A stretch of DNA of 64,000 nt from an uncultured bacterium (GTDB lineage Bacteria > Patescibacteriota > JABMPQ01 > CAVVCK01), in assembly GCA_963746775.1 (NCBI GenBank), contig CAVVCK010000002.1, forward strand, positions 367,592-431,591, in the 5' to 3' direction. Positions 1,816 through 61,878 of this stretch are shown here, in pieces. The position numbers were made by a program, and so were the translations under genes. The notes beneath the pieces were generated by a model. That model was not told the origin of the DNA. It ran no database searches and saw nothing but the letters and a program-made list of their open reading frames with translations. Numbering within the stretch: position 1 is the first letter of the stretch; each line of letters opens with the position of its first letter.

Positions 1816-3221
1816 AACATTTACAACAAATTGAACGATTACAACATTTAGAGCATTTCACAACACATCCTACTAGAACGCATAAAGTGAGGAGAGAGAT
1901 TTTTAACCCGAAGGGTTAACCCCTGATAGGAGTATTTCCTTATAGGGTTAATATTCTCAATTTATATATAATATAATTACATAAAAAATGAGAATGTCTT
2001 CATGCGTTCTAGTAAAAAGTGTTTTTTTATAAAAGTTATTTACCTGGCTTTAGCCAGATATAATCAGAATGGCTGGCTAAAGCCAGGTAAATAATTATTC
2101 TTATTTTTTTAATGTTTTAATGAGTCATGCCGCCATCCATTGAAAAACAGAGGAATTAAACTTAAAAGCTTTCATTATTACTTTAACTCTTAGTTTCAAC
2201 ATTCATCCTCCGAAATCTTAAATAAAGGAAGATTCTTTTCCGCTTGCGCAGGCAAGCCTCTGCTTATCAATAGATAGTTATATTTTCTCCCCTTTCTAAG
2301 GGGAGGTAGAGGGGTATTCACAATGTTCTTGTGATTCTATTTAATAACGTGATAAAAATCCCTTTATAACTCTCCCTTTTATAGGGGAAACTTATTTTTA
2401 ATGTTCTTGTGTTATCTTGTTATCTTGATTCCACCCATCAGTAGAAGGAAAGAAGCTTAGGACTTATAAAATATATTTAAGGCCCTAGAACTTTTATCTC
2501 TCTCCTTCTGCTGTTAGATAGAATCTTATCCTTCTCCCCTCAATTGAGAAGAAGAAGAATATAGAATATATGTTTTAATGTTATTGTGTTATTTTGTTAT
2601 CTTGATTTTCCCCCAAAGTAATGAAGAGAAGTACCTACGAGGGACATACAATGTTATTAATTCCCTATAGATAACTCTCTCCTCTCCATTACCCTGAAGG
2701 ATTTATTCTCCTAAAGAAAGGGTATTTACAATGTTTTACAATTCTTACCAGAATAATGAAGAGGACAAGCCTTAGGGTATATAATATTACTTTGACCCTA
2801 AAAAGCTTATTTACTCTCTCCCCTTCATTATTCCGATAAATAAAATACGGGTGACTCAATAAGGAAGAGCCACCCGTATTTATATATTACTACAATATTT
2901 AACAAATCTATCAAATATTATATAAATGTATCCACCACAAAAGGTGGACTTAGGTTAAAAACGGTTTACAGCACCGTTTTTTAGCTGACTCTCTCCCCAG
3001 AGAATTTGCTAATATCTATTAATTTGTGAAAGTTCTTTTTGGACAATTTTCATTTTACTTGAATATTATATCATATATTAAAAAATATGTCAATACTATT
3101 TTGACATATTCTATATATTATTATGTAATATTTACTATATTTAGCTTAAAATAGCTATTTTAAGCTAAATTAAAAATATCTATTACCTTGGAAATATTTT
3201 TTATATTAATTTTTGAATTAA

Positions 3222-4353: not shown

Positions 4354-6240
4354 TTAGAACAGTTTAATAGCTCCAAACGGACAAACCTGCGAACACGCTC
4401 CGCAACCAGAACATAACTCTTTATCAATAAAATATTTATCACCTTCGTGTTGAATTGCTGGACAAGCATATTGATTAGTACAAGTACCACACTTTTTACA
4501 TTCACTCTGATCTATTTCAAAAGGAATAATTTTCTGCCCGCTCTTTCTCATTTCACTCCAGCGAAGAAGAATACAAGGCCCCTTAGCAACTAATACTGAT
4601 GGCCCCTTAACTTCCAATAATTCTTTGACCGCTGCTTGTGTTTCTTTCAAATTATAAACACTGACAACTTTCATATGCTTAATTCCACAAGCGCGTACAA
4701 TTTCTTCTACATTTACTTCACTAACTTTTTCTCTCATACCATTTCGACCCATGCCTGGATTAGGCTGATGACCAGTCATGGCTGTGATCCTATTATCCAT
4801 GATTACTATTAAAGAATTGGAATTATTATAGACAGTATTCAAAAGTCCGGAAATTCCAGCGTGAAAAAATGTTCCATCCCCAATAAATGAAATAGTTTTA
4901 TTTTTCTTAGCAGTTTCTGTACCAAAATAATCAGCCGCTTTTCTAATACCATGAACAATCCCAATATTGGCTCCCATATCATACATAAAATCAGCCATTT
5001 CGTAAGGAGGAAAAGCACCCAACATATAGCAACCAATATCTCCGCCAAAGACTGTACCTTGAGGCGCCATTTTTTTAACAGAGAAAAAGGTAGCACGATG
5101 CGGACAGCCCGGACACATTACAGGATATCTTCTAATAATATCTAAATCCTTAAATCTTTTTAAATGATCATCTAAATTTATTCGCTCAGATTTATTAAGT
5201 AATTTTGATAAAGCTTTTTCAACTATTTCTGGCCTGAGCTCTCCAGATCTTGGAATTAATTCTTTACCAGTTACTTTTAGTCCACAATTAACCTTACCTG
5301 CAATTGCTCTAACATCATTTTCTACCATAGGCTCCAGCTCATCAACAACTAATACTTCCTCTTTATCCTTAATAAAATCGGAAATATTTTTCTCCGGTAC
5401 AGGATAAGTTGCCCCTAATTTTAAAATAGGTAGTTTTATTCCTAAATTATCCAATGCTTCTCGGACATAACACATAGAAACGCCAGAAGTTATAATGCCA
5501 AATTTACTTTTTTCATCATTATTTTCAACATAATTAAAACTTGATTCTTCGAAATCTTTTTGTAATTCTTTTAGTTTCCCTAATATTCTATTGTGATTCT
5601 CTATCATTTTAGGAGCAAAGGTGAAATAACGATCATGGTCTTTCTTAAATTCCGCCTTCTGTCCAGTAGTACCCTTAATTTCTCCAACATTTACTGGACT
5701 TGAAGTATGGCATACTCTAGTAGTTAAACGCAGCATTACCGGAATTTTATACTTAGCTGATATTTCATAAGCCTTTTTAGTATAATCTAGCGCCTCTTGA
5801 GGATCTGATGGTTCAATCAAAGGAGCATTAGCCATACGTGCATAATAACGCGTATCTTGTTCTGATTGTACTGAACTCCAGCATTGTGGATCATCAGTAA
5901 CCACTATCACTATAGGTCCATCTGATTCTACATAGAAAGCAGGCATAAAACTATCTGAAGCAACATTCAAACCAAAGCTTTTAAATGAAACCATGGTCTT
6001 AAGACCAGATAGTGAGGCACCAATTCCGGCTTCTAAGGCTACTTTCTCATTTGTAGAATATTCAAAATACATCCCAGCATCTTTAGCAATTTCAGAAAAA
6101 GTATCCCCTATTTCTGAGGAAGGTGTGCCAGGGTAACAAGATGAAAAAGCAACACCTGATTCAAGCGCACCACGTACCACCGCTTCATTACCAAGCATAA
6201 ATAATTTCTTATCTTTATTTAAAACGTTTGTTTTACCCAT
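4354..6240 (-). CDS. iorA: Indolepyruvate:ferredoxin oxidoreductase subunit alpha (TPP-dependent, 2x[4Fe-4S])
   Basis: 628 aa; TPP-binding region GDGTFFHAG; C-terminal ferredoxin motifs CKKCGTCTNQYACPA and CSGCGACSQVCPFGAI. Confidence 0.85.
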   Translation of the reverse strand: MGKTNVLNKDKKLFMLGNEAVVRGALESGVAFSSCYPGTPSSEIGDTFSEIAKDAGMYFEYSTNEKVALEAGIGASLSGLKTMVSFKSFGLNVASDSFMPAFYVESDGPIVIVVTDDPQCWSSVQSEQDTRYYARMANAPLIEPSDPQEALDYTKKAYEISAKYKIPVMLRLTTRVCHTSSPVNVGEIKGTTGQKAEFKKDHDRYFTFAPKMIENHNRILGKLKELQKDFEESSFNYVENNDEKSKFGIITSGVSMCYVREALDNLGIKLPILKLGATYPVPEKNISDFIKDKEEVLVVDELEPMVENDVRAIAGKVNCGLKVTGKELIPRSGELRPEIVEKALSKLLNKSERINLDDHLKRFKDLDIIRRYPVMCPGCPHRATFFSVKKMAPQGTVFGGDIGCYMLGAFPPYEMADFMYDMGANIGIVHGIRKAADYFGTETAKKNKTISFIGDGTFFHAGISGLLNTVYNNSNSLIVIMDNRITAMTGHQPNPGMGRNGMREKVSEVNVEEIVRACGIKHMKVVSVYNLKETQAAVKELLEVKGPSVLVAKGPCILLRWSEMRKSGQKIIPFEIDQSECKKCGTCTNQYACPAIQHEGDKYFIDKELCSGCGACSQVCPFGAIKLF

Positions 6241-6473: not shown

Positions 6474-6965
6474 CTATAAATCCTTAATTCCTTTTTCTTT
6501 TCTTATTTTCTCCCATTCTTTTTCTACTACTTTTAAATGCCTATCGGTATCTGTCCTTAATTTATCTAATAAATCTTTTAAATATTGTATATCTGTACTG
6601 ACAATTTCAAAGCATTTATTTTCCAAAAATGAACTTTCTATTATTCTAGCGATAGATATAGCATCTAATATACCAAAATCTTTTTTATCCACCTTTTTCA
6701 TGCTTTCTTCAATTTGATCACTAAAATAATCAACACTGTTAATAATTTTCTTACTTTGCGTAAAATAAACTTTTCCGTCTAACATTTCACCAGCTATTCT
6801 CCTAATCCAAGCAGCATGCCTTAATTCTTCTCCAGCAATATTTTTCCAGAATTTACTATAATCCTCAAATTTCCTGGCAAATTTTTTATATAACTCACTC
6901 AGTCTCTCTTCATTAGAAGCCATTTTCTTTAATGTTTCTATTTGTTTGTCTTTACTCTTAACCAT
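6474..6965 (-). CDS. Ferritin-like/rubrerythrin-like four-helix-bundle protein (tandem paralog 1)
   Basis: 163 aa; E...EELRH...E...DRH pattern reminiscent of diiron ferritin-like helices; strongly similar to the neighbouring ORF. Confidence 0.4.
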   Translation of the reverse strand: MVKSKDKQIETLKKMASNEERLSELYKKFARKFEDYSKFWKNIAGEELRHAAWIRRIAGEMLDGKVYFTQSKKIINSVDYFSDQIEESMKKVDKKDFGILDAISIARIIESSFLENKCFEIVSTDIQYLKDLLDKLRTDTDRHLKVVEKEWEKIRKEKGIKDL

Positions 6966-6985
6966 AATATTTATTCATTAAACAA

Positions 6986-7471
6986 TTAATTTTCTAAACC
7001 CTCTTCTCTTCTAAGTTTTTTCCATTCCTCCTCTACTTGATGTAAATGATCTTGAGTAGCTTTTTTTAATCTATTTAGTAAATCCTCAAGTTCAGGAGAA
7101 TTTGATTTAACAATCTCAAAACATTTATTTTCCAAAAGTGAGCTTTCCAATATTCTGGAAATAGAAATAGCGTTGATTAGTTTAAAATTTTTATTATCCA
7201 TTTCTTTCATGCTTTCTCTGACTTGATCAGTAAAATATTCAATCCCCGTAACCATTAAACTATCCTGATTATATAATACGCTTCCTTCTCTTATTTTATT
7301 GCTTAAATCCCTTATCCAGTCAGCGTGATCCACTTCTTCATAAGCTAAATGCTGCCAAAATTCTGTATGCGTTTTAAATTTTTTCGCAAAAGATTGGTAA
7401 AGCTCGCTTAAAAGCTCTTCATTAGAAGCCATTTTTTCTAATATTCCCAATTGTTTGTCCTCTTTATTCAT
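6986..7471 (-). CDS. Ferritin-like/rubrerythrin-like protein (tandem paralog 2)
   Basis: 161 aa; MASNEELLSELY...EEVDHADWIR; paralog of 6474..6965. Confidence 0.4.
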   Translation of the reverse strand: MNKEDKQLGILEKMASNEELLSELYQSFAKKFKTHTEFWQHLAYEEVDHADWIRDLSNKIREGSVLYNQDSLMVTGIEYFTDQVRESMKEMDNKNFKLINAISISRILESSLLENKCFEIVKSNSPELEDLLNRLKKATQDHLHQVEEEWKKLRREEGLEN

Positions 7472-7892: not shown

Positions 7893-8066
7893 TTATCTTG
7901 TTTTTTTTGATCCCCTATTACTCATATAACTATGCACAATCCTCTCCACCAAAATCAAGGCAGCATCATCAAAATATCCTGGGATTAAATCCGGTGCAAT
8001 AAAATAAATTAAAACTAAAATTAGAGACCAATTTTTCTTGAAAAATATTTTTGTCTTGCTTGGCAT
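7893..8066 (-). CDS. Small DUF1232/YkvA-like membrane protein
   Basis: Unlisted ~57-aa minus ORF: MPSKTKIFFKKNWSLILVLIYFIAPDLIPGYFDDAALILVERIVHSYMSNRGSKKTR; the DxIPxxxDD motif is typical of DUF1232. Confidence 0.45.
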   Translation of the reverse strand: MPSKTKIFFKKNWSLILVLIYFIAPDLIPGYFDDAALILVERIVHSYMSNRGSKKTR

Positions 8067-8084
8067 ACTTTTTTAATTATTAAA

Positions 8085-8093
8085 AAATGTTAT
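8085..8093 (+). promoter_or_regulatory. Extended -10 promoter element (TGtTATAAT) upstream of the heliorhodopsin gene
   Basis: tgttataat lies 36 bp upstream of the ATG at 8129. Confidence 0.4.
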
Positions 8094-8128
8094 AATAAAT
8101 AAAATTGCTAAAAAATAATAAAAATAAA

Positions 8129-8899
8129 ATGAAACAGGAGAAAAAATTTAAAAAGCTACGTATTTTTAATGTAGTTATGGGATTCTTTCATGCTCTTCAG
8201 GGAACCTTAATGCTTTATTTGAGTAATGATTTCACTCTGCCTATTAATTCTTCTTTTTTAAAATTTATTCCGGAAAAACAAGCTCTTTCTCCTTTTATTG
8301 AAAAACTATACGATATAAAAGTTGGACCGGCTATTGCTTGTTTTCTATTTCTCTCTGCTTTGGCTCATTTTATTATCAGCCTGCCCGGTATAAATAGCTG
8401 GTATGTTAAGAATTTGAAAAAAGGCGCTAATTTTGCCCGCTGGATAGAATATTCCGCTAGCTCGTCTTTAATGATTGTTATAATCTCTATGTTAGTCGGT
8501 ATTTATGATATTGCCAGCTTAATTTTAATTTTTGCCGTAAATACTTGTATGATTTTATTCGGCTGGATGATGGAGCGGCACAATATGGATACTAATAAAG
8601 TTAATTGGACATCTTTTATTTTTGGCTCCTTTGCCGGATTAATACCTTGGGTTTGTGTTGCTATTTATTTATTCGGTTCCGGTGATGGTGATAATAAAGC
8701 GCCAACCTTTGTTTACTGGATATTTTTCTCAATGTTTATATTCTTTAATTTATTCGCCATTAATATGATTCTGCAATATAAAAAAGTTGGTCCCTGGAGG
8801 GATTATTTATTTGGTGAAAAAATGTATATAATTTTAAGCTTAGTTGCCAAGTCTCTACTCGCCTGGCAAGTTTTTGCTGGAACCCTAAGACCAGTATAA
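8129..8899 (+). CDS. Heliorhodopsin (7TM microbial rhodopsin of the heliorhodopsin family)
   Basis: The track ORF 8105..8899 starts at TTG; the ATG at 8129 is likely the real start. Strong colinear similarity to heliorhodopsin 48C12 as I recall it: FHALQ, NDFTLP, FLFLSALAHFI, RWIEYSASSSLMIVI, MILFGW, LIPW, FVYWIFFSMFIFFNLFA, QYKKVGPWRDYLFGEKMYIILSLVAKSLLAWQVFAGTLRPV. The TM7 retinal lysine sits in SLVAKS. Confidence 0.9.
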   Translation: MKQEKKFKKLRIFNVVMGFFHALQGTLMLYLSNDFTLPINSSFLKFIPEKQALSPFIEKLYDIKVGPAIACFLFLSALAHFIISLPGINSWYVKNLKKGANFARWIEYSASSSLMIVIISMLVGIYDIASLILIFAVNTCMILFGWMMERHNMDTNKVNWTSFIFGSFAGLIPWVCVAIYLFGSGDGDNKAPTFVYWIFFSMFIFFNLFAINMILQYKKVGPWRDYLFGEKMYIILSLVAKSLLAWQVFAGTLRPV

Positions 8900-9448
8900 T
8901 TATTTTCTGCTATACAATCCGATAATTTCCGCTTTATCTATAATATGCCCTACCATTGCATTTTCAAGATCGGGCTTTTTAGTATTTGGAGTTAAATCTA
9001 ATTCAATATCTAAAGCATAAACTTTAAAATAGTAATGATGTGCCCCAGAAGACGGACAAGGAGCACCATAGCCCGTACTTCCAAAACTAGTAATACCCTC
9101 AATTGCTCCTTCCGACACACTATTTTCTTTAATCTCACTCGTTCCGGGATTAATATTCCAAGCCAACCAATGAACAAAATCGCCAGAGGGTGCATCGGGA
9201 TCATCGAAAATTAAAGCTAAGCTTTTGGTGCCTTCTGGAATTTCTGAAATTTGTAAAGGCGGATTTACCCCTTCCCCATCGCAAGTATATTTGGCTGGAA
9301 GAGATTGTCCATTTTCAAAAGATGAACTTTTTATTTGCATAATATTTTTTAAATTATTATTTAAAATAGGTTCCGACTGCATGCCACAACCTACTATTAG
9401 CGTAGCGAAAAACAACAAGGGAATAATTAAAAATATTTTTGTTATCAT
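8900..9448 (-). CDS. YbhB/YbcL (PEBP/RKIP) family lipoprotein
   Basis: 182 aa; lipobox LIVGCG; PEBP signatures DPDAP...FVHWLAWNI...HHYYFKVYALD. Confidence 0.7.
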   Translation of the reverse strand: MITKIFLIIPLLFFATLIVGCGMQSEPILNNNLKNIMQIKSSSFENGQSLPAKYTCDGEGVNPPLQISEIPEGTKSLALIFDDPDAPSGDFVHWLAWNINPGTSEIKENSVSEGAIEGITSFGSTGYGAPCPSSGAHHYYFKVYALDIELDLTPNTKKPDLENAMVGHIIDKAEIIGLYSRK

Positions 9449-35422: not shown

Positions 35423-36652
35423 CTAAGATATAGTTTTATCTTCAAATTTATCAATAATTTTTTTCATCTCCATGCCATTAGATCCTTTAACCAAAACTAT
35501 AGTATTTGATTTAATATCCTTCGAAAGATACTCGGCTGCTTTCTCTGAGTTTTCAAACCATTTTAAGTTTCCCACATCAAAATTACTCTTTTTAGCTTCA
35601 TCTATAATATATTTTGAATTTTCTCCTACACAAATAATTTGATTAGCTATTTCTGCTGCTTTTTTGCCAACTTCTCGATGCCCTTCTTCAGTATAATCAC
35701 CTAATTCTAGCATATCACCCAATACTGCTATTTTATATTTATTTTTACCTAACATTTCTAAATTTTCTAAGGCAGCAGTGCATGATACTGGATTAGAATT
35801 ATAAGAATCATTTATTAAAGTAATATCTTTGTTCTTTTTTTTAATAATATTACCTCTATTTTTAATTGAATTTAATTTTCTAACATTAATTATTATTTCT
35901 TTCCATTCTAAATTGAAAACAAATCCACAAGCAATAGCTGCTAAAACTGAATAAATCATTATCATATTGAAAATACCTGGAATTTCAACGAAAGAATAAT
36001 TTTTTTTATAATGTAGAATAAATTGTAATCCATTCTCTGTAACTTTAACTTTTTCCGCCCAAACATCGGCTTTTGGATTTAATCCATAATACAATACTTT
36101 AGCCTTTGTAAAATCTTTCATCTGCCTAATATAATCATCATCATAATTCAATATGGCTGTTCCTTCTTTTGGTAATTCTTCAACTAAAATTTGTTTCTGC
36201 TTGGTTATTTCTTCTATTGAGCCAAAATATTCAATATGAGAAGGAGCTATTTTCGTTACTATGCCAATTTTAGGCCTAGTCATATTGGTAAAATGACGAA
36301 TACCTCCCTTTTTTCTCATTGTGGAGATTTCTAAAATTAATATTTTAGGAAATTTAATGTTTCCAAAAAGTATTTTAAATATATGAGGTATTTGAGAAAT
36401 AAATTTTGTAATTGTATTACAAATATCAATACGTAACACTTCTGCAGGTAGAGATAAGCTGGTGTTGCGTGTTAATCTTGTTTCTAAAACATCATATTTT
36501 GAAGTTAGAATATTTTTTATATATTCTTTTGTTGATGTTTTTCCTACACTCCCTGTAATATTTATTACAAATGGCTTATATTTTATTAAAACCATTCTAA
36601 CTGTTACATATAATAAATATTCTAAAATAATTCTTCTTATGTGTTTAATCAT
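35423..36652 (-). CDS. murF: UDP-N-acetylmuramoyl-tripeptide--D-alanyl-D-alanine ligase
   Basis: 409 aa; Mur ligase P-loop ITGSVGKTSTKE and the MurF-typical NDSYNSNP. Confidence 0.7.
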   Translation of the reverse strand: MIKHIRRIILEYLLYVTVRMVLIKYKPFVINITGSVGKTSTKEYIKNILTSKYDVLETRLTRNTSLSLPAEVLRIDICNTITKFISQIPHIFKILFGNIKFPKILILEISTMRKKGGIRHFTNMTRPKIGIVTKIAPSHIEYFGSIEEITKQKQILVEELPKEGTAILNYDDDYIRQMKDFTKAKVLYYGLNPKADVWAEKVKVTENGLQFILHYKKNYSFVEIPGIFNMIMIYSVLAAIACGFVFNLEWKEIIINVRKLNSIKNRGNIIKKKNKDITLINDSYNSNPVSCTAALENLEMLGKNKYKIAVLGDMLELGDYTEEGHREVGKKAAEIANQIICVGENSKYIIDEAKKSNFDVGNLKWFENSEKAAEYLSKDIKSNTIVLVKGSNGMEMKKIIDKFEDKTIS

Positions 36653-36658
36653 GAACTT

Positions 36659-37552
36659 TTAAATATGAACTTGATATTTATTTTTAGCCTTTTTTATCAA
36701 ATATTCAACCATCCTATCGTTAATATCATATTTTAGATCTTCTATTATAGGAACAAAATTAAGAGGAAAATTAACTTCAAAAATCTTTAAATTACCACTT
36801 TTATCATAAACAAAATCCACTGCTCCTAATTCTATATCTAGGGTTGATACAGCCTTTACTAATATTTTTTCATCTTCTTTTGGTAATTTTATTATTTCTC
36901 TTTTTCTTGTAGTTTGGTCAACATTAGACCTAAAATCATCACTAGAACTGACATTAGTATTTTTATAAGCAATTTCTAATTTATCACCTAAAATCACAGC
37001 CCTATTTGAATAAGAAGGTTTTCCAATATCAATAAATTCTCTTATTACCAGCTCATCAACATTTTCCGATCTCAAATAATCCACTACTGAAAAAAGAGAT
37101 GATAATGAATCTATTTTAAGAACTCCTACACCGCAACTACCGCCTACGACTTTCAAAATAACAGGAAAACCACCTACATAATCAACATATTTTTTTAGTA
37201 AATCCCGATTTTCACTTAAGTCAAATATTGTTTTGGGCACAGGAACATTCTCCTTTTGATGAACAAAAAAAGAAGTAGGATATTTAGAAATTGATCTTTT
37301 ATAATCTTTATAAAATGTAGTTAGTTCTTTGCTTAACAGAAATTTCTCTAGCGTTTGACATCTCTTTGCAATATATGGTCTATATAACATATCGCCCTTT
37401 TCTATTTTAATATTATTAGTATAGTCATAGGTTTCAATATAGAGCTCATGAAAATCTACTTTTAATTTTTCACAGGAAGATCTTAAATATTCAACTATTT
37501 CGGGTTTTGTATTTTTTTTGCATATACAATAAAATTTCATTTTTTTATACAT
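36659..37552 (-). CDS. RimK-like ATP-grasp ligase (tandem paralog 1)
   Basis: 297 aa; GGFPVILKVVGGSCGVGVLKIDS and EVNFP ATP-grasp motifs. The Ddl alternative was considered but the N-terminal Ddl motifs are absent. Confidence 0.55.
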   Translation of the reverse strand: MYKKMKFYCICKKNTKPEIVEYLRSSCEKLKVDFHELYIETYDYTNNIKIEKGDMLYRPYIAKRCQTLEKFLLSKELTTFYKDYKRSISKYPTSFFVHQKENVPVPKTIFDLSENRDLLKKYVDYVGGFPVILKVVGGSCGVGVLKIDSLSSLFSVVDYLRSENVDELVIREFIDIGKPSYSNRAVILGDKLEIAYKNTNVSSSDDFRSNVDQTTRKREIIKLPKEDEKILVKAVSTLDIELGAVDFVYDKSGNLKIFEVNFPLNFVPIIEDLKYDINDRMVEYLIKKAKNKYQVHI

Positions 37553-37616
37553 TATTTTATTTATATAATAATTTTGTTCTCAATTCAAAGATTACAAATA
37601 TTATGCTTTTACATCT

Positions 37617-38510
37617 TTATCTTTTTTGTTTTTTAAAAACACTAATAGCATAATCAAAAAGATGCTCTGTTGGACTTATGCCAGTATACTTTCTAAATCC
37701 ACCAAACCCTGGACAGTTTTCTATTTCTAAAACATATACTCTATTTTTATATTTTAATAAATCAACCCCCAATACATCATTTTTTGTTACTTTAGCTAAT
37801 TTTTCTGCAATATTTTTCATCTCTTTGCTTAATTTTGCCTTTTCGCCTGATCCACCTTGATGTAAATTACCTCTAAAATCATTCTTCGCTGCTATTCTTT
37901 TATAAACTCCTAATACTTTATACCCAACTACTAAAACTCTATAATTACTTCTTACTGGAATGTATTCTTGTATTAGCAATCCTGTTTTTGATTTAAAATA
38001 ATTTTTGAATTTATTAGCATCCTTTTCGCTAGTTAATTTTTCTACTTCTTTACCCATCCAGCCATGAGGATCTTTTATTATCACAGGAAGTTTTACATTT
38101 TCTATTATATTTTTAAAGCAGAAATAGCTATTTACAATATATGTTTTAGGATGATTTAACTTTAATTTTTTTAAGATATTAATAAAGCTCACTTTATCCG
38201 AATTAGTCCTACCATCACAAAAACTCTGGTTGATTACTATTTTTTTATTTTTATCTAAATATTTTGCTAAAAAATATATTTCTTCCACAAAACTTTTCAA
38301 GTCTGGTCTAAAAATAAAAACATCATAGTCTAATAAATTATGTTTACAACAATAGACATTCAGACTACCATTGTCCCATTTACAGACAATATCTTCCATA
38401 AAAAATAGATTTACAGAAATATTTAATTTCCTTCTTTTAATAATATTGTCTATGTCTTTATATAAAGTGGCTTTGGGAAACTGTTTTAAACCAATTGTAG
38501 CAATCTTCAT
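37617..38510 (-). CDS. RimK-like ATP-grasp ligase (tandem paralog 2)
   Basis: 297 aa; LPVIIKDPHGWMGKEV and LEIENCPGFGGFRKYTG resemble the RimK C-terminal LEVNSSPGLEGIEKATG. Confidence 0.55.
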   Translation of the reverse strand: MKIATIGLKQFPKATLYKDIDNIIKRRKLNISVNLFFMEDIVCKWDNGSLNVYCCKHNLLDYDVFIFRPDLKSFVEEIYFLAKYLDKNKKIVINQSFCDGRTNSDKVSFINILKKLKLNHPKTYIVNSYFCFKNIIENVKLPVIIKDPHGWMGKEVEKLTSEKDANKFKNYFKSKTGLLIQEYIPVRSNYRVLVVGYKVLGVYKRIAAKNDFRGNLHQGGSGEKAKLSKEMKNIAEKLAKVTKNDVLGVDLLKYKNRVYVLEIENCPGFGGFRKYTGISPTEHLFDYAISVFKKQKR

Positions 38511-38527
38511 ATTACATTGTTTGTTAT

Positions 38528-39952
38528 TTATTTGGTTGTATCGACTAGAAATCTCTTCAAATCTCTCTTCCCAATAATTACTTTATACCGTAAAAGTTTC
38601 CTGTTAGTCACATTAGTTTTGGAAATAACTTTAATTCCTGATAATATAAAGGTTATTTTAATATAAGGACGTAAACTTAAACCATGTGATGACCTAATCC
38701 AAGCAACATCAACGATTTCACCATTTTCCTTTTGTAAAATATTTCTAACTTTTCTAGCTTCATTAGTAGCCTCTTTATCTGTCAACTCAGGACTTAATTC
38801 TTTTGTCTCTAATAAATTTAATATGTCTTGATAACCTAATTTACTAGCCAGTTCTCTATCTATTGAAGTCGAATCAGCTCCCGTATCTATTTTAGCCATA
38901 ACTTCAAAATTTTTATCGCCTTCTTTACTAAACAATTTCACTTTTTCAATACTTCCAATCACTTCTCTATTAGACACTTCTTCTACTCTTCTCTCAACAT
39001 CCCCTCCAAATAAATCTTTAGCAATCCTAATGCCATGCGCCACTGATTTTACTTTTAAACCTTTAACTCTCTTCAATCTTCCAGCCAAGCCTTCTAAATT
39101 GGCTACTTGAATATCAAGCCCTGGCCTGGCATTTAGTTCTAAAATTTCCGGACCGTATTTTTTATCAATAGCTATATCTACCCCTAAATATCCTAAATTA
39201 GTAGCAACTTGCGCTTCTACGCTCATTTCTAGTATTTTATCCCACTCTGGTATTTGAAAATCTGATAACTTTTGATTAGTGTCAGGGTGGCTATCAATTA
39301 TTTTTCTAGATGGTAATTTAGTCATGGCAGTCGTAGTCATCCCCGAACCAATATCAATTCCAACTGCTACTGCTCCTTGGGCAATATTAGCTCTTCCTTG
39401 AGATCTTTCGGTGGGAAGACGCATCATGGACATTACCGGCACTTTATTAAACACAATTATTCTGATATCCGGAATTCCCCGGCGAGTATAGTTTTTAAAA
39501 ATTGGATGAGTAGTTAATTTTCTTTCAATAAAAGCTGTATCTGGTAAACCTTGCAGGGAAAAACTACCATCTAAAATATCTAATACATGTGATTTTAATT
39601 TTTCAAAATCCCAAAGATTACCGGAACTTGTATACCATTCTCTTCTACGTAATGGCAATTTTAAAAATGCTTCTTTTTTCTTACTACGACGTAATAAGAC
39701 TATCCCCTCTCCACCAAAACCTCTATTAGGTTTTATAACAAAATTCGCCGGTAATTTTTTCCAATCAAAACTTTCAAAATCTTTTATAGTTCTGATAACA
39801 CCATATAATCTAGGCGTAGATATGCCAGTTTTTATTAATATTTCTTTCGAATCCAATTTACTGTCAGCCAATCTGACTGCCTTTTTTTTATTGTAGGGAC
39901 GAATAAAATTTAGGTTTCTTTCATTCATTCCTAAAATTTCATTTTGAGCCAT
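38528..39952 (-). CDS. Alpha-L-glutamate-ligase-like ATP-grasp enzyme fused to a C-terminal retropepsin-like (DTGA) aspartyl protease domain
   Basis: 474 aa; N-terminal ILGMNERNLNFIRPYN...IKPNRGFGGEGIVLL...ELNARPGL (ATP-grasp); C-terminal VMAKIDTGADSTSID (retropepsin / RimK-associated Zn_protease-family motif). Confidence 0.6.
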   Translation of the reverse strand: MAQNEILGMNERNLNFIRPYNKKKAVRLADSKLDSKEILIKTGISTPRLYGVIRTIKDFESFDWKKLPANFVIKPNRGFGGEGIVLLRRSKKKEAFLKLPLRRREWYTSSGNLWDFEKLKSHVLDILDGSFSLQGLPDTAFIERKLTTHPIFKNYTRRGIPDIRIIVFNKVPVMSMMRLPTERSQGRANIAQGAVAVGIDIGSGMTTTAMTKLPSRKIIDSHPDTNQKLSDFQIPEWDKILEMSVEAQVATNLGYLGVDIAIDKKYGPEILELNARPGLDIQVANLEGLAGRLKRVKGLKVKSVAHGIRIAKDLFGGDVERRVEEVSNREVIGSIEKVKLFSKEGDKNFEVMAKIDTGADSTSIDRELASKLGYQDILNLLETKELSPELTDKEATNEARKVRNILQKENGEIVDVAWIRSSHGLSLRPYIKITFILSGIKVISKTNVTNRKLLRYKVIIGKRDLKRFLVDTTK

Positions 39953-41527
39953 TTATTTCTTATTATCTTGGCGAGTAAATCTTTTTATTTCTCTAAATCG
40001 GATATATTCAGAAATACGAAGTCCTACCCATTTGGCCATTAAAATATTTATAACAAAAGTGAGTAATAAGCTTTCTGGATAAGCAAGTATAAAAGTCGTT
40101 AAAACATCCCAGCTAGCTACATAATAACATGCTACAGAAACTAAAATCGTTTCCAGAGATAGCATAATAGCTGTACGTGGCCCTTTTTCCATTTGAATAG
40201 CAATAAATTTTTCTACCATGATAATTAATACCAGTATAGGCAAGATCGAAATACCAATGATACCAGTTCTATTTGTAGCTGCTCCAACTACAAACATAGC
40301 CAAAATAGTAAAAGCAACGATAGATAGTACTATCGCCATTCTAGGTAAATACAAAAATCTGAATTTTCTCAATAATAATCTAACCAAGGTTGCTGCTACT
40401 AATATAACTATAAATATGGTTAATCCGTATTTTAAACCAGTAGCTAAAAATGAAAGTGTAATAATTGATGGTGTATAAATACCAAATGTTTTAATTCCTA
40501 AAAATTGACGAAAAAAGGCAATAATAGTAGCAATAATCGGCAACATAAGCATTAAAATAATATTATCTGTCGATACTCCTTTATTGATTAAATAATTAAT
40601 TGTATAGCTCATAAAATTCGTTATGCCTAAATCTTTTATTCCGCGCTCGCTATAGAAAGTAATTAAATTATGACTAATTCCCGCCTCTCTAATTGACTCT
40701 AATATCTCATCTGCTTTTTTGGCTTCAATTACATAATCAAGAGCAGATTTTTTAGTTAAAAGTATGTATTTTGGATTTAAAACATCAAAAGTGGATTGAG
40801 CATAACGAGCAATAGAAGTGAATCCACCTTCCGTAATATTAATAACAGCTTTATTATTAACATTTAAACTTTCTAAATCTTCACTCTTTTGAGCAAATTT
40901 TGATAAGACATTTAAACCCAAATTCCCCGATGTCCAAACTATAATAGCTGATGAATTCTTTACAACTTCGCTATTTTCTAAAAGCGAATCAGCCAATGTC
41001 CCCTCTACAATATAGTCAGGATCAGCTTTATCATTTCTGATATCAAATAAATATACCCTTTCTCTCGAAGCTGTTTTCCTTATAGGCTGTAAATCTTCTT
41101 CCAGAATAGATTTATCCGTTATTAAAATTATAGAATCTTCATATATTTTTACTATTAATTCATCAGTATCTTCTCCTGCCTCATTTTTGCTTTTTAAAAT
41201 TACACTGTAGTCTCCTGAGTTATTATATAAATGTTCTATTTTCGAACCTGCTCCTGATTCACCATCTCCAAAATCCCATTCATATTGGGTATTGCTATTA
41301 TCATCCTCTTCATTCGTAATTGCCTTAAAAACTACTTTATAACCTAATAATTGTTCTGAATCTGGCCCAGCATTAGCTTTGGGAATTTTTATTTCTGGCT
41401 TATTTTCTTCAATATTTTCTTGATTTACATTATTATCTCCTGTCTTATTTTCGTCTTGAGCAAAAGCATAAGAAAAACCAAAAATAATCAAGCTTATTGT
41501 TAAAAATAATGTTATAAATTTTTTCAT
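39953..41527 (-). CDS. Secreted PKD-domain protein with a C-terminal 7TM domain (7TM receptor-like partner of ATP-grasp/retropepsin systems)
   Basis: 524 aa; signal peptide; PKD-like YEWDFGDGESGAGSKIEHLYNNSGDYSV; ~200-aa extracytoplasmic domain; seven predicted TM helices at the C-terminus. Confidence 0.5.
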   Translation of the reverse strand: MKKFITLFLTISLIIFGFSYAFAQDENKTGDNNVNQENIEENKPEIKIPKANAGPDSEQLLGYKVVFKAITNEEDDNSNTQYEWDFGDGESGAGSKIEHLYNNSGDYSVILKSKNEAGEDTDELIVKIYEDSIILITDKSILEEDLQPIRKTASRERVYLFDIRNDKADPDYIVEGTLADSLLENSEVVKNSSAIIVWTSGNLGLNVLSKFAQKSEDLESLNVNNKAVINITEGGFTSIARYAQSTFDVLNPKYILLTKKSALDYVIEAKKADEILESIREAGISHNLITFYSERGIKDLGITNFMSYTINYLINKGVSTDNIILMLMLPIIATIIAFFRQFLGIKTFGIYTPSIITLSFLATGLKYGLTIFIVILVAATLVRLLLRKFRFLYLPRMAIVLSIVAFTILAMFVVGAATNRTGIIGISILPILVLIIMVEKFIAIQMEKGPRTAIMLSLETILVSVACYYVASWDVLTTFILAYPESLLLTFVINILMAKWVGLRISEYIRFREIKRFTRQDNKK

Positions 41528-54505: not shown

Positions 54506-54916
54506 TCAAAACACGTCTTCACTAATTTTCCGTTTCTCTTTTTTTATTGACCTTTCTTTTTTTTCTTTCAACCTTCTCTTAACTGATCCTCTAGTCGGTT
54601 TTGTCGGCACTCTTTTCTTTACAGATTTAATTGCCATATTAATCAAACTATTAAATTTATCAATTACCTCTACCCTATTTTGCCATTGCTGCCTCTCACT
54701 CTGAGAATAAAGAATTAAATTTCCCTGCTTATCAATTTTATTTTTCAAATTTATAAATACTCTTCTCTTCTGTTCTTCGTTTAAAAAAGTGGAATTAATA
54801 ATATTCCACTTCAGAGTTACTTTTGTTGAAACCTTATTAACATTCTGCCCACCTTTGCTAGAAGATCTGGAAAAAGTTAATGCATATTCATTTTCTGGAA
54901 TAGTAATTTTATTCAT
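54506..54916 (-). CDS. arfB: Peptidyl-tRNA hydrolase ArfB (alternative ribosome-rescue factor B, GGQ domain)
   Basis: SRSSSKGGQNVNKVSTKV GGQ motif plus a basic C-terminal tail. Likely start MNKITIPE (54916); the track ORF extends to 54982 through a repeat element. Confidence 0.7.
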   Translation of the reverse strand: MNKITIPENEYALTFSRSSSKGGQNVNKVSTKVTLKWNIINSTFLNEEQKRRVFINLKNKIDKQGNLILYSQSERQQWQNRVEVIDKFNSLINMAIKSVKKRVPTKPTRGSVKRRLKEKKERSIKKEKRKISEDVF

Positions 54917-54956
54917 ATTAGTATAATTCGTATGTATTAGTATATTAGCATCGCAT

Positions 54957-56039
54957 CTAGTATCGAAGTAATGCTCCAACATTGCCTAATTTTTCTAACT
55001 CTTCACTCTCTTGTACAAACTCCACTTTCCCACCCTGCGCTATTACTTGCTGCACTAATTCATCAATTACATCCTCCACTTCTTCTTTATTATTCTCACA
55101 TTGCTTACAATCATCTTTTTTATAAATCAACTTATCACAATTTGTACAAATATAGCCCGGTTTCTGCAAGCCTTCTTTTACAATTAATTTCATAATTTTC
55201 TTCTCAAAAGAAACTTGCAGCACTTCGTCTAAACCCGAGACTGCCTTATTCCCATCACCTAAATTTTCTTTTAATAATTGGACTTGTTCTTTTTCTTTTT
55301 CTCTTTCAACTTTTTCTTCAATTTTCAATGATTGTTCTAAAAAATGTTGATCATTTTCAAACATTTCTGTGTAGAAATCACCAACTAATTTATCTTTTAA
55401 ATCATTGTGTAATAATTTTTCAAATTCTACCATTGCTTCTTTTGTCCCTCCAATAATTAATCGATCAAAATCTTTTTCTCTAAAATAGTTATAAGCTCTA
55501 TCAGCTACTTCTTTTAAATTTTTATGTTCGATAGCATTAATGTGCCCCTGAAATCTTTTTTGAGATGATCCGCCTTTTTTATGCTTACCTGGAAATTCAT
55601 TAAAAACATTAGTTATATCTTCAATCTCACCCAAATAAACTGAAAATATTTTTGCTTTTTCTTTATCTACCACAATTGTGCAATATCTTTCGTATTCATC
55701 AAACATAGCAAATAATGGTTTTAAGTGTAGGTTATTTTCTATATGAATTTGATTAGAAAATGGCTTATTCAGCTTATAACTATAAGCAATATCTTCTCTG
55801 GGATTTAGGAAAAATACTACCCCTTTGGATTTTTTGTCGGGAACTAATCTAGCTTGATCTAAGACTAATTTATAATTTTCTTCTCCAATTATTTCTTTGG
55901 ATTTTTTAAGTAAATTTTTTAAATTTATTAAAATTTTCTCCGGAGTATTATATTTTTGATCGGCATTTAAATAAAGACTGATAGTCGGGGTATTTGTTTT
56001 AATTTTATTAAGTTCTTTTAGTTCTTCTTGGGTAATCAT
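54957..56039 (-). CDS. eRF1/Pelota(Dom34)-like three-domain protein (bacterial eRF1-like, baeRF1) with inserted C4 zinc ribbon
   Basis: 360 aa; central-domain loop FPGKHKKGGSSQKRFQ aligns with eRF1 KHGRGGQSALRF but has S in place of the catalytic Q; C-terminus GNVGALLRY matches the eRF1/Pelota end motif; CTNCDKLIYKKDDCKQC zinc ribbon. Confidence 0.55.
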   Translation of the reverse strand: MITQEELKELNKIKTNTPTISLYLNADQKYNTPEKILINLKNLLKKSKEIIGEENYKLVLDQARLVPDKKSKGVVFFLNPREDIAYSYKLNKPFSNQIHIENNLHLKPLFAMFDEYERYCTIVVDKEKAKIFSVYLGEIEDITNVFNEFPGKHKKGGSSQKRFQGHINAIEHKNLKEVADRAYNYFREKDFDRLIIGGTKEAMVEFEKLLHNDLKDKLVGDFYTEMFENDQHFLEQSLKIEEKVEREKEKEQVQLLKENLGDGNKAVSGLDEVLQVSFEKKIMKLIVKEGLQKPGYICTNCDKLIYKKDDCKQCENNKEEVEDVIDELVQQVIAQGGKVEFVQESEELEKLGNVGALLRY

Positions 56040-60092: not shown

Positions 60093-61878
60093 ATGAAAAC
60101 TAGAAATATAGCCATTATCGCTCATGTAGATCACGGCAAAACCACCCTCACAGACGCCCTAATGCAGCAAACTGGTGTAGCCAGCGCAGATATCACTATG
60201 GATACCGATATTATGGAAAAGGAGAGAGGAATTACAATTTATTCCAAAAATACCAGTATTTTCTATAAAGATACTAAAATAAACATAGTTGATACTCCGG
60301 GACACGCTGATTTCGGCTCGGAAGTAGAACGTGTTTTACGCTCTATTGATTCTGTTTTACTCCTAGTAGATGCCCAAGAGGGACCAATGCCTCAGACTAA
60401 ATTTGTTTTGAAAAAATCTCTGGAATTAGGATTAAAACCAATTGTAGTTATTAATAAAATAGACAAGCCAGCCGCCAGACCCAATGAGGTGAATGATATG
60501 GTCCTAGAATTATTCATGGATTTAAAAGCCTCAGATGAACAACTTGATTTTAAAACCATTTATACTATTGCCAAACAAGGGATAGCTAAACATAAGCTAG
60601 AAGATGAATCAAAAGACCTAACTCCCCTGCTTGATTTGATTATGGAAAATGTGAAGCCAGCCTCAAGCGAAGAGTTATCAAATAAGAAACTTTTATTCCA
60701 ACCTTTTAACCTAGCTTATGATAATTTTTTGGGCCGTTTGGCAATTGGTAGAATATATGAAGGTAAAATAAAAGATACTCAAAGTGTTATTATAAAAAAC
60801 AAAGACAAGGTAAGATCTGGGCGACTAACAAAATTATTTACTTTCTACGGATTAGAAAGACGCGAGGCAAAAATTGCGGAAGCTGGAGATATAGTTATGA
60901 TTGCTGGTCTTCCAGAAATTTTTATTGGCGAAACAGTTTGTGAAGATGAAAATCAAGAAACTCTACCCAGTATTGATATTGATGAGCCAACCATCTCACT
61001 AAATTTCCTAGTAAATGATTCCCCTTTTGCAGGACAGGAAGGTGACAAAGTAACTACCCGACAAATTAGAGAAAGATTAGAAAAAGAATTAGAAGTAAAT
61101 GTGGGTTTAAAAATAGATTTTTCCAATAATGATTATTATAAAGTATATGGCCGTGGTGAATTGCATATCACTATTCTACTTGAAAACATGAGAAAAAAGG
61201 GCTATGAAGTTCAGGTCTCTGAACCACAAGTTATTATAAAAGAAAAAGATGGCCGTAAATTAGAGCCTTTTGAAGAGGTAACTATCGACGTCCCCAATAA
61301 TATGTTCTGGCACCATTATTGAAAAAATGGCTAAAAGAAAAGGTGAAATGATTGATATGCAGCAAGAAGAAAATCAAACTAGAATGATTTTCCATATTCC
61401 AACCAGAGGACTCCTAGGATATCGAGGAGAATTTATTATGGATACTAGAGGAGAAGGAATATTATGTTCCAGAGTGTTAGGATTTAAACCACACGTTGGA
61501 GAGATAAAGAAACACAAAGTAGGTTCTATGATTTCTATGGAAAATGGCAAAGCTCTAGCATATTCTTTATTTAATTTACAAGATAGAGGCAAATTATATA
61601 TTAATGCTAACACTGAAGTATATGAAGGCATGGTTATCGGTAATACCTCTAAAGGAGTAGATATTCCAGTTAATCCAATTAAAGGAAAACACTTAACTAA
61701 TATGCGAGCCGCCAGCGCTGATGATGCTATGATTTTAAAAGCTTCTCAAGAAATAAACATTGAAAGAGGTTTAGAAATAATGAAAGATGATGAATATTTA
61801 GAAATTACACCGAAAAACGTCAGGTTAAGAAAAAAGTATTTGAGTGAATTAGATAGAAAAAGACATAATAGAAAATAA
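60093..61878 (+). pseudogene. typA: Translational GTPase TypA/BipA interrupted by a +1 frameshift near 61300-61306 (ORFs 60093..61322 and 61327..61878)
   Basis: [22 protein letters not shown] motifs. The reading frame switches between ...IDVPNNMF and GTIIEKMAKRKGEMIDMQ. Removing one T from gttctgg restores a colinear ~595-aa TypA. Confidence 0.8.

Follow-up and report, generated by a model that had tools for sequence, protein, structure and literature searches.

Does the 64,000-nucleotide stretch of contig CAVVCK010000002.1 analysed here (positions 367,592 to 431,591; hereafter the window) encode a genuine heliorhodopsin, and, if it does, how could the protein obtain its chromophore and what could it do in a small bacterial genome? 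An earlier examination of the letters alone (the sequence-only reading) had proposed a heliorhodopsin open reading frame (ORF) at 8129..8899, and we found it there, complete and on the plus strand. Judged by sequence and profile comparison, its product is a canonical member of the TaHeR-like group of prokaryotic heliorhodopsins, and the organism is a bacterium of the Patescibacteria (candidate phyla radiation, CPR). By analogy with characterized relatives, we consider it likely that the protein is a slow-cycling, non-pumping photosensor that would be loaded with exogenous all-trans retinal and would signal to one or more partners encoded elsewhere.

A canonical heliorhodopsin by profile and fold

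The translated protein matched the Pfam family Heliorhodopsin (PF18761) with an E-value of 4.7e-103 and 344.2 bits against a cut-off of 26.7, covering profile positions 1-242 of 242. The NCBIfam equivalog NF038020, 'heliorhodopsin HeR', was matched with 347.6 bits against a cut-off of 100 (positions 1-244 of 244), and a standard annotation pipeline would therefore name the protein correctly. The sequence-only reading had suggested comparing heliorhodopsin and type-1 rhodopsin profiles as a check on its assignment; besides PF18761, our Pfam scan of the protein returned no family at E <= 0.01, the type-1 family PF01036 included. When the PDB was searched with phmmer, heliorhodopsin structures were recovered at E-values from 1e-76 to 3e-63. 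These include TaHeR, from Thermoplasmatales archaeon SG8-52-1 (1e-76; PDB 6IS6, 7CLJ and 7U55), and the founding heliorhodopsin 48C12, from an actinobacterial fosmid (4e-64; 6SU3 and 6UH3).

The predicted fold agrees with this assignment. An AlphaFold2 model built on 27 relatives (mean predicted local distance difference test score 86.8; predicted template-modelling score 0.82) shows seven long helices and a beta-hairpin between transmembrane helices 1 and 2 (TM1 and TM2). Foldseek superimposed this model on TaHeR (6IS6) with template-modelling scores of 0.94-0.96, a root-mean-square deviation of 1.4 A and 52-53% identity over the whole length; 48C12 (6SU3) is more distant, at a score of about 0.90 and 46% identity. 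Type-1 rhodopsin structures, by contrast, reached scores of only 0.55-0.67 at 9-15% identity, and the motif in TM7 is SxxxK rather than the DxxxK of type-1 rhodopsins.

All of the conserved blocks on which the assignment had first been based are present in the translation (FHALQ, NDFTLP, RWIEYSASSSLMIV, MILFGW, IPW and LSLVAKSLLAWQ), and the alignment runs column for column with TaHeR and 48C12, so that the claimed colinearity with a known heliorhodopsin holds. We also looked for placement in a non-rhodopsin seven-transmembrane (7TM) family, or for a misaligned lysine or misaligned blocks, and found neither. The heliorhodopsin identity thus stands on full-length profile matches, alignment and predicted fold together.

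An in-frame TTG at 8105 offers an alternative start that would add 8 residues. We prefer the ATG at 8129 because the same 256-residue product is called in an independent assembly of the same organism, and because homologues are 253-268 residues long and their alignments begin at residue 1-3. An identical protein is found in public data on an unannotated metagenome-assembled contig of 547,535 bp, and run ERR11571143 contains the identical gene.

Functional residues and the fenestration

We derived residue equivalences from pairwise alignment, mapped them to 48C12 numbering and judged invariance among 27 relatives at 62-74% identity. Eighteen positions are identical to 48C12 and invariant in all 27 relatives: N14 (N16 in 48C12), H21 (H23), Q24 (Q26), S76, H80, Y92, N101, R104, W105, E107, Y108, E149, Q216, Y226, E230, S237, K241 and W246. 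They include the features by which the family is recognized, namely the SxxxK lysine, a glutamate counterion in TM3 and the histidine pair H21/H80. The TM7 Schiff-base lysine of the sequence-only reading is K241, which aligns with K241 of 48C12 and K238 of TaHeR (Table 1). Its motif, SLVAK, is the commonest TM7 motif among CPR heliorhodopsins (PMC9166423). A cytoplasmic polar network made up of H21, H80, Q216, Y226 and E230 is also conserved.

Counterion glutamate, SxxxK lysine, histidine pair, Gln/Glu polar network and a lateral fenestration are all common to TaHeR and the present protein. The two differ in host, which is archaeal for TaHeR and a CPR bacterium here, in the TM5-TM6 loop (GSGDGDNKA), which is 4 residues longer here, and at F163, which corresponds to Y164 of TaHeR. 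With 48C12 the protein shares even its numbering at E107, Q216, Y226, E230, S237 and K241, and all polar-cavity and fenestration residues are conserved; the differences are S167 for C166 of 48C12 and M213 for Q213.

The fenestration deserves separate attention, as it bears on chromophore supply. A recent preprint defines a fenestration and carotenoid site, in 48C12 numbering, by aromatic residues at 162 and 206, glycine at 169, non-bulky residues at 166 and 210 and asparagine at 207 (Kornilov et al. 2025; 10.1101/2025.11.27.691015). The aligned residues here are F163, F206, G170, S167, A210 and N207, and the protein is accordingly predicted from its sequence to belong to the fenestrated heliorhodopsins. 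This complete residue set, together with a monoderm-type host cell open to external lipids, is what could make the protein mainly a 'two-antenna' light harvester, one that recruits exogenous xanthophylls alongside retinal, rather than a simple sensor. We think that unlikely. Carotenoid binding by heliorhodopsins in the preprint comes from docking and sequence motifs, not from measured binding (10.1101/2025.11.27.691015), retinal uptake explains the fenestration equally well (PMC9296517), and an antenna by itself defines no output function.

The distribution of charge is consistent with the orientation for which the sequence-only reading had proposed a topology check. Using the helix boundaries of the AlphaFold2 model, we counted 12 lysines and arginines in the N-terminus and cytoplasmic loops, against 6 in the extracellular loops and C-terminus. 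Six of the former lie in the N-terminus itself (MKQEKKFKKLR), and 4 of the 6 on the outside sit in a 33-residue hairpin of zero net charge. By this computational indication, the positive-inside count fits a cytoplasmic N-terminus and the inverted topology of heliorhodopsins.

Table 1. Coordinates of the heliorhodopsin gene, its predicted functional sites and its flanking features (window numbering).
Feature	Position	Strand	Basis
Heliorhodopsin coding sequence	8129..8899	+	256 residues plus TAA stop; ATG start
TGTTATAAT, candidate extended -10, 32 nt 5' of the ATG	8088..8096	+	Exact match to TGnTATAAT
H21 codon, cytoplasmic polar cluster	8189..8191	+	H23 of 48C12 and TaHeR; invariant in 27 relatives
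Long extracellular beta-hairpin (extracellular loop 1, ECL1), residues 36-64, a heliorhodopsin hallmark	8234..8320	+	DSSP strands E36-47 and E52-64, AlphaFold2 model
H80 codon	8366..8368	+	H80 of 48C12; invariant in relatives
E107 codon, predicted single Schiff-base counterion in RWIEYS	8447..8449	+	E107 of 48C12, E108 of TaHeR; invariant
Fenestration, TM5 side: F163, S167, G170	8615..8638	+	F162, C166, G169 of 48C12
M202 codon, position of V2HeR3 E191 (TaHeR I199)	8732..8734	+	Alignment and equivalences in PMC9448325; no carboxylate
Fenestration, TM6 side: F206, N207, A210	8744..8758	+	F206, N207, A210 of 48C12; invariant in relatives
SLVAK in TM7: S237 and predicted retinal-binding K241 (aag, 8849-8851)	8837..8851	+	K241 of 48C12, K238 of TaHeR; invariant
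Divergent 57-residue membrane ORF upstream	7893..8066	-	ORF list; DUF1232 at E 0.78, 10 bits; absent from related loci
Convergent PEBP/YbhB-family lipoprotein gene	8900..9448	-	PF01161, E 8.6e-41; TIGR00481; lipobox LIVGC

Host and retinal supply

Two lines of evidence assign the host to the Patescibacteria. The best named relatives of the LepA protein encoded in the window are exclusively Patescibacteria or Parcubacteria. The nearest relatives of the heliorhodopsin, with which it shares 62-74% identity, either carry the annotation 'heliorhodopsin HeR [Patescibacteria group bacterium]' or belong to Dojkabacteria (WS6); those from species-representative genomes belong to Kerfeldbacteria, Saccharibacteria, Berkelbacteria, Nomurabacteria and other CPR lineages, with Chloroflexota and archaeal sequences following at 54-64% identity. 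Both lines bear out the part of the sequence-only reading that placed the gene in a reduced genome, that of a small-genome Patescibacterium; the host dependence that it added is carried over from CPR bacteria as a group, which are generally held to be host-dependent. The assignment agrees with the listing of Patescibacteria among the phyla that bear heliorhodopsins, and robustly classified heliorhodopsin contigs were all assigned to monoderm phyla (PMC8612252).

Heliorhodopsins are well documented in such organisms. A survey of 1,326 CPR genomes found 115 rhodopsins in 86 of them, all but 17 being heliorhodopsins; Saccharimonadia, Dojkabacteria and ABY1 were among the classes represented (PMC9166423). 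The catalogued CPR heliorhodopsins (Chiriac et al. 2022, PMC9166423; Dojkabacteria UniRef A0A0G0GLS1) are 62-74% identical to the present protein and 253-268 residues long, and they share its SLVAK motif and host type; even the nearest cluster is just 74% identical to it.

Does the window hold a source of retinal? Every non-overlapping ORF of at least 90 residues was covered by a Pfam scan or by precomputed Pfam matches, and we also considered the ORF truncated by the left edge of the window, whose product has LysM repeats and, C-terminally, a CHAP-like motif. Within this set we found no polyprenyl synthase, phytoene synthase or desaturase, lycopene cyclase, Blh or carotenoid oxygenase (CCD) in the 64 kb, as the sequence-only reading had claimed for crtEBIY and blh. 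The same scan found no type-1 rhodopsin, glutamine synthetase or photolyase.

Such an absence has precedents. blh is rare in heliorhodopsin genomes, and its absence is the rule where a heliorhodopsin is the only rhodopsin (bioRxiv 10.1101/2021.02.16.431466). Rhodopsin-bearing CPR genomes lack blh, and TaHeR, whose organism is also without a retinal pathway, rapidly takes up external retinal through a hole, its fenestration having been proposed as the entry route; scavenging has been proposed, and is biochemically supported, for CPR rhodopsins and TaHeR (PMC9296517). The SacR proteins of Saccharibacteria are likewise CPR rhodopsins in genomes without blh, and they have been proposed to depend on retinal made by others and to take it up fast through a hole (Jaffe et al. 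2022, PMC9296517). They differ from the present protein in being DTS-motif type-1 outward proton pumps of the opposite orientation.

That the bacterium makes its own retinal, from genes outside the window or by an unconventional route that does not use blh, seems to us quite unlikely. The window is only about 12% of the 547-kb contig, and Aurantimicrobium minutum is inferred to have a retinal pathway of an unknown kind (bioRxiv 10.1101/2021.02.16.431466). Against this stand the lack of any kind of isoprenoid or carotenoid enzyme in the window, the surveys of CPR genomes just cited and the conserved retinal-access fenestration. Moreover, blh and heliorhodopsin co-occur mostly where a type-1 rhodopsin is also present (bioRxiv 10.1101/2021.02.16.431466), and the window has none.

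Search for a partner gene

Heliorhodopsins modulate glutamine synthetase, photolyase and an ABC exporter in other bacteria (PMC9529153, PMC9769723, PMC11109279), and a conserved neighbour could point to such a partner here. We compared 17 window proteins from around the heliorhodopsin with 80 related loci from species-representative genomes (flanks of up to 10 kb) using tblastn. A PEBP homologue lay within 10 kb of the heliorhodopsin in 2 of the 80 loci and was never adjacent, a DUF167 homologue was near it in one, and homologues of the P-type ATPase, a common gene that is about 6 kb from the heliorhodopsin here, were within 10 kb in seven. Beyond these sporadic occurrences, none of the 17 proteins recurred in the 80 loci. 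Even around the closest relative (74% identity) the contig context is wholly different, with LiaF-like and DUF4342 genes. We therefore rejected the neighbours as a functional hint, as none is conserved across the related loci.

De novo clustering of the neighbours in the related loci recovered ABC exporters, SDR and alpha/beta hydrolase proteins, DUF2177, DUF1295, PAS histidine kinases and a pyrimidine-dimer DNA glycosylase, essentially the classes already published (PMC11109279; bioRxiv 10.1101/2021.02.16.431466; PMC8612252). None of them is near the heliorhodopsin in the window, and we set them aside as leads. None of the ten neighbour groups of PMC11109279 occurs within 10 kb of the window heliorhodopsin either, which places the gene outside the operon-linked heliorhodopsins. 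Stand-alone genes of this kind are common, and the heliorhodopsin has no close same-strand neighbour in 31 of 75 related loci (about 41%).

One neighbour in the related loci is worth recording for its own sake. The pyrimidine-dimer DNA glycosylase (PF03013) is carried by 5 of the 80 loci (L014, L019, L022, L036 and L074 in our numbering). It lies immediately downstream, on the heliorhodopsin strand, in four of them, and upstream on the opposite strand in L014. This ultraviolet-repair neighbour is outside the ten published neighbour classes and parallels the known link between heliorhodopsin and photolyase.

Proposed working and alternatives

AbHeR, TfHeR and OcHeR, which act on glutamine synthetase, photolyase and the OmrDE ABC exporter, respectively, belong to the same family as the present protein. 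By analogy with them, it probably works through light-dependent protein-protein regulation without ion transport. They are co-transcribed with their partners, whereas the present gene is monocistronic between opposite-strand genes. In the sequence of events that we propose, the apoprotein would span the single membrane with a cytoplasmic N-terminus, as characterized relatives do. All-trans retinal made by other organisms, possibly the host, would pass from the membrane or the surroundings through the fenestration between TM5 and TM6 and bind K241 as a protonated Schiff base, with E107 as its counterion. Absorption of green light would then start a slow photocycle; the Schiff-base proton would not leave the protein, no ion would be pumped, and a conformational signal would pass to one or more partner proteins encoded elsewhere.

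Several points weigh against this photosensor account. What we propose for chromophore binding, photocycle and the lack of transport is carried over from relatives at 46-53% identity, and that light reaches the source habitat is an assumption. The scan for retinal genes spans 64 kb of at least 547 kb, and an endogenous or unconventional pathway could lie elsewhere. Nor does the locus point to a partner, as none of the neighbour classes described in the literature, such as glutamine synthetase, photolyase, ABC exporter, DUF2177 and SDR, is adjacent to the gene.

A further version links the protein more closely to the way of life of the cell. In an episymbiotic CPR cell unable to make retinal or carotenoids, the heliorhodopsin would become photoactive only once it had received chromophore from a pigment-producing host through its fenestration, so that the light signal would serve as a read-out of host contact. 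The output would reach a partner encoded at some other locus, of which the P-type ATPase gene at a distance of about 6 kb is an example. We regard this version as very unlikely.

Proton transport is less probable again, and we give it little credence. Some heliorhodopsins do transport protons (PMC9448325), and a pump would be useful to CPR cells, which have few proton-moving routes (PMC9296517). The hallmark of the proton-transporting viral protein V2HeR3 is E191 in TM6 together with Trp 195 and a Glu or Gln at 205 (PMC9448325). The residues here are M202 in place of E191, F206 in place of W195 and Q216 in place of E205, so that the protein falls outside the V2HeR3 group. It is of the TaHeR/48C12 type, in which transport went undetected (PMC9448325), and, unlike the group to which the viral transporting subfamily belongs, it has kept the fenestration (10.1101/2025.11.27.691015).

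Least credible of all is that the gene is a recently transferred passenger without a role, or no rhodopsin but a member of type-1 or another 7TM family: its context differs even from that of its closest relative, and the spread of the closest heliorhodopsins over several CPR classes, Chloroflexota and archaea does suggest lateral transfer, but the ORF is intact with all functional residues conserved, its G+C content of about 0.30 matches the surroundings (the window is about 30% G+C), on which ground we rejected foreign origin by composition, and profile and fold searches return heliorhodopsin only. Among the alternatives to the photosensor account, only the antenna idea and endogenous retinal synthesis keep appreciable probability.

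Immediate neighbourhood and transcription

The heliorhodopsin had been described as one of few plus-strand genes in the region, and nearly all real ORFs of the window are indeed on the minus strand; the exceptions are the heliorhodopsin, a 139-residue hypothetical protein, UvrD, BipA and two tRNAs. Because both flanking genes are on the opposite strand, we take the heliorhodopsin to be monocistronic.

The sequence-only reading had also credited the gene with its own extended -10 promoter. The motif is present (Table 1); the case for it as a promoter is weaker than claimed. TGNTATAAT occurs 10 times in the window against a chance expectation of 8.6, and a consensus promoter scan upstream of the heliorhodopsin found no acceptable -35 and called no promoter there. 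TGTTATAAT is therefore at most a plausible promoter, and we discounted it as evidence.

Of the names given earlier to the neighbours, PEBP, GNAT and DUF360 (now Phage_holin_4_2) were confirmed by Pfam. The DUF1232 label for the 57-residue upstream ORF was not, given the poor match listed in Table 1. On the downstream side, the heliorhodopsin gene ends in TAA at 8897-8899, and the stop codon of the convergent PEBP gene follows at 8900-8902 with zero intergenic bases. The two genes thus have no spacer, and no intrinsic terminator fits between them. A role for the PEBP lipoprotein as a retinal shuttle was considered and rejected, as its sole support is the abutting stop codons and the pairing is not conserved.

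On the upstream side, 0.7-1.7 kb from the heliorhodopsin, 6474..7471 (minus strand) encodes two tandem paralogous proteins of 161-163 residues, whose Pfam matches to rubrerythrin/ferritin-like families are sub-threshold (E about 1e-4) and which have no NCBIfam match. A link between CPR heliorhodopsins and light-induced oxidative stress has been proposed (PMC9166423). We rejected this pair as a sign of such a link, given its sub-cut-off Pfam matches, the lack of any in NCBIfam and its absence from related loci.

Other features of the window

Several further features were recorded in passing. Positions 1816..3221 form a hairpin-rich stretch of about 1.4 kb without an ORF of at least 60 residues. 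The hairpins comprise a 27-nt inverted repeat at 2031-2099, a pairing of 1862-1887 with 1998-2023, and one at 2843-2881. Degenerate direct repeats, TTTTAATGTTCTTGTGTTATCTTGTTATCTTGATT, lie at 2396 and 2573, with shorter relatives at 2315 and 2720. A search of this stretch against Rfam returned nothing apart from a spurious microRNA match to a hairpin, and repeated small-peptide ORFs were not found in it.

At 4354..6240 (minus strand), an alpha/beta-type subunit of 2-oxoacid (pyruvate):ferredoxin oxidoreductase and a 4Fe-4S ferredoxin domain form one ORF of 628 residues. In the Logan assembly of the same organism (L001, 1207..3099) this oxidoreductase is called as two genes, of 498 and 129 residues, and the assemblies therefore differ by a small sequence change. 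A BipA/TypA GTPase at 60093..61878 (plus strand) is split into 60093..61322, with the GTP_EFTU domain and domain 2, and 61327..61878, with EFG_C and BipA_C; the gene may really be split, or a frameshift, an in-frame stop or a sequencing error may account for the two ORFs.

Two minus-strand groups of genes may form systems of their own. The cluster at 35423..41527 encodes a Mur-ligase-like enzyme, two RimK-type ATP-grasp ligases, an ATPgrasp_ST-Zn_protease fusion and a membrane protein with PKD and 7TM_transglut domains, and looks like a predicted peptide-ligase or peptide-modification system. At 54506..56039, a homologue of bacterial archaeo-eukaryotic release factors (baeRF family 10, with eRF1 domains 2 and 3) overlaps a small gene with an RF-1 domain (ArfB-like), a possible ribosome-rescue pair.

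Significance

What, then, does the locus add? The sequence-only reading expected a heliorhodopsin in a reduced, host-dependent genome to be informative. This was overstated, because CPR heliorhodopsins, the rarity of blh and retinal scavenging have all been published already. Heliorhodopsin function becomes no more testable through this locus, because it lacks a conserved neighbour that would indicate a partner. It is one more stand-alone, well-preserved heliorhodopsin of the Patescibacteria, of little import beyond its correct annotation. As such, the locus shows once again a heliorhodopsin that has no retinal-synthesis genes nearby and keeps its retinal-access fenestration, and its product, small and well conserved, could be a candidate for expression work on heliorhodopsins of the CPR.

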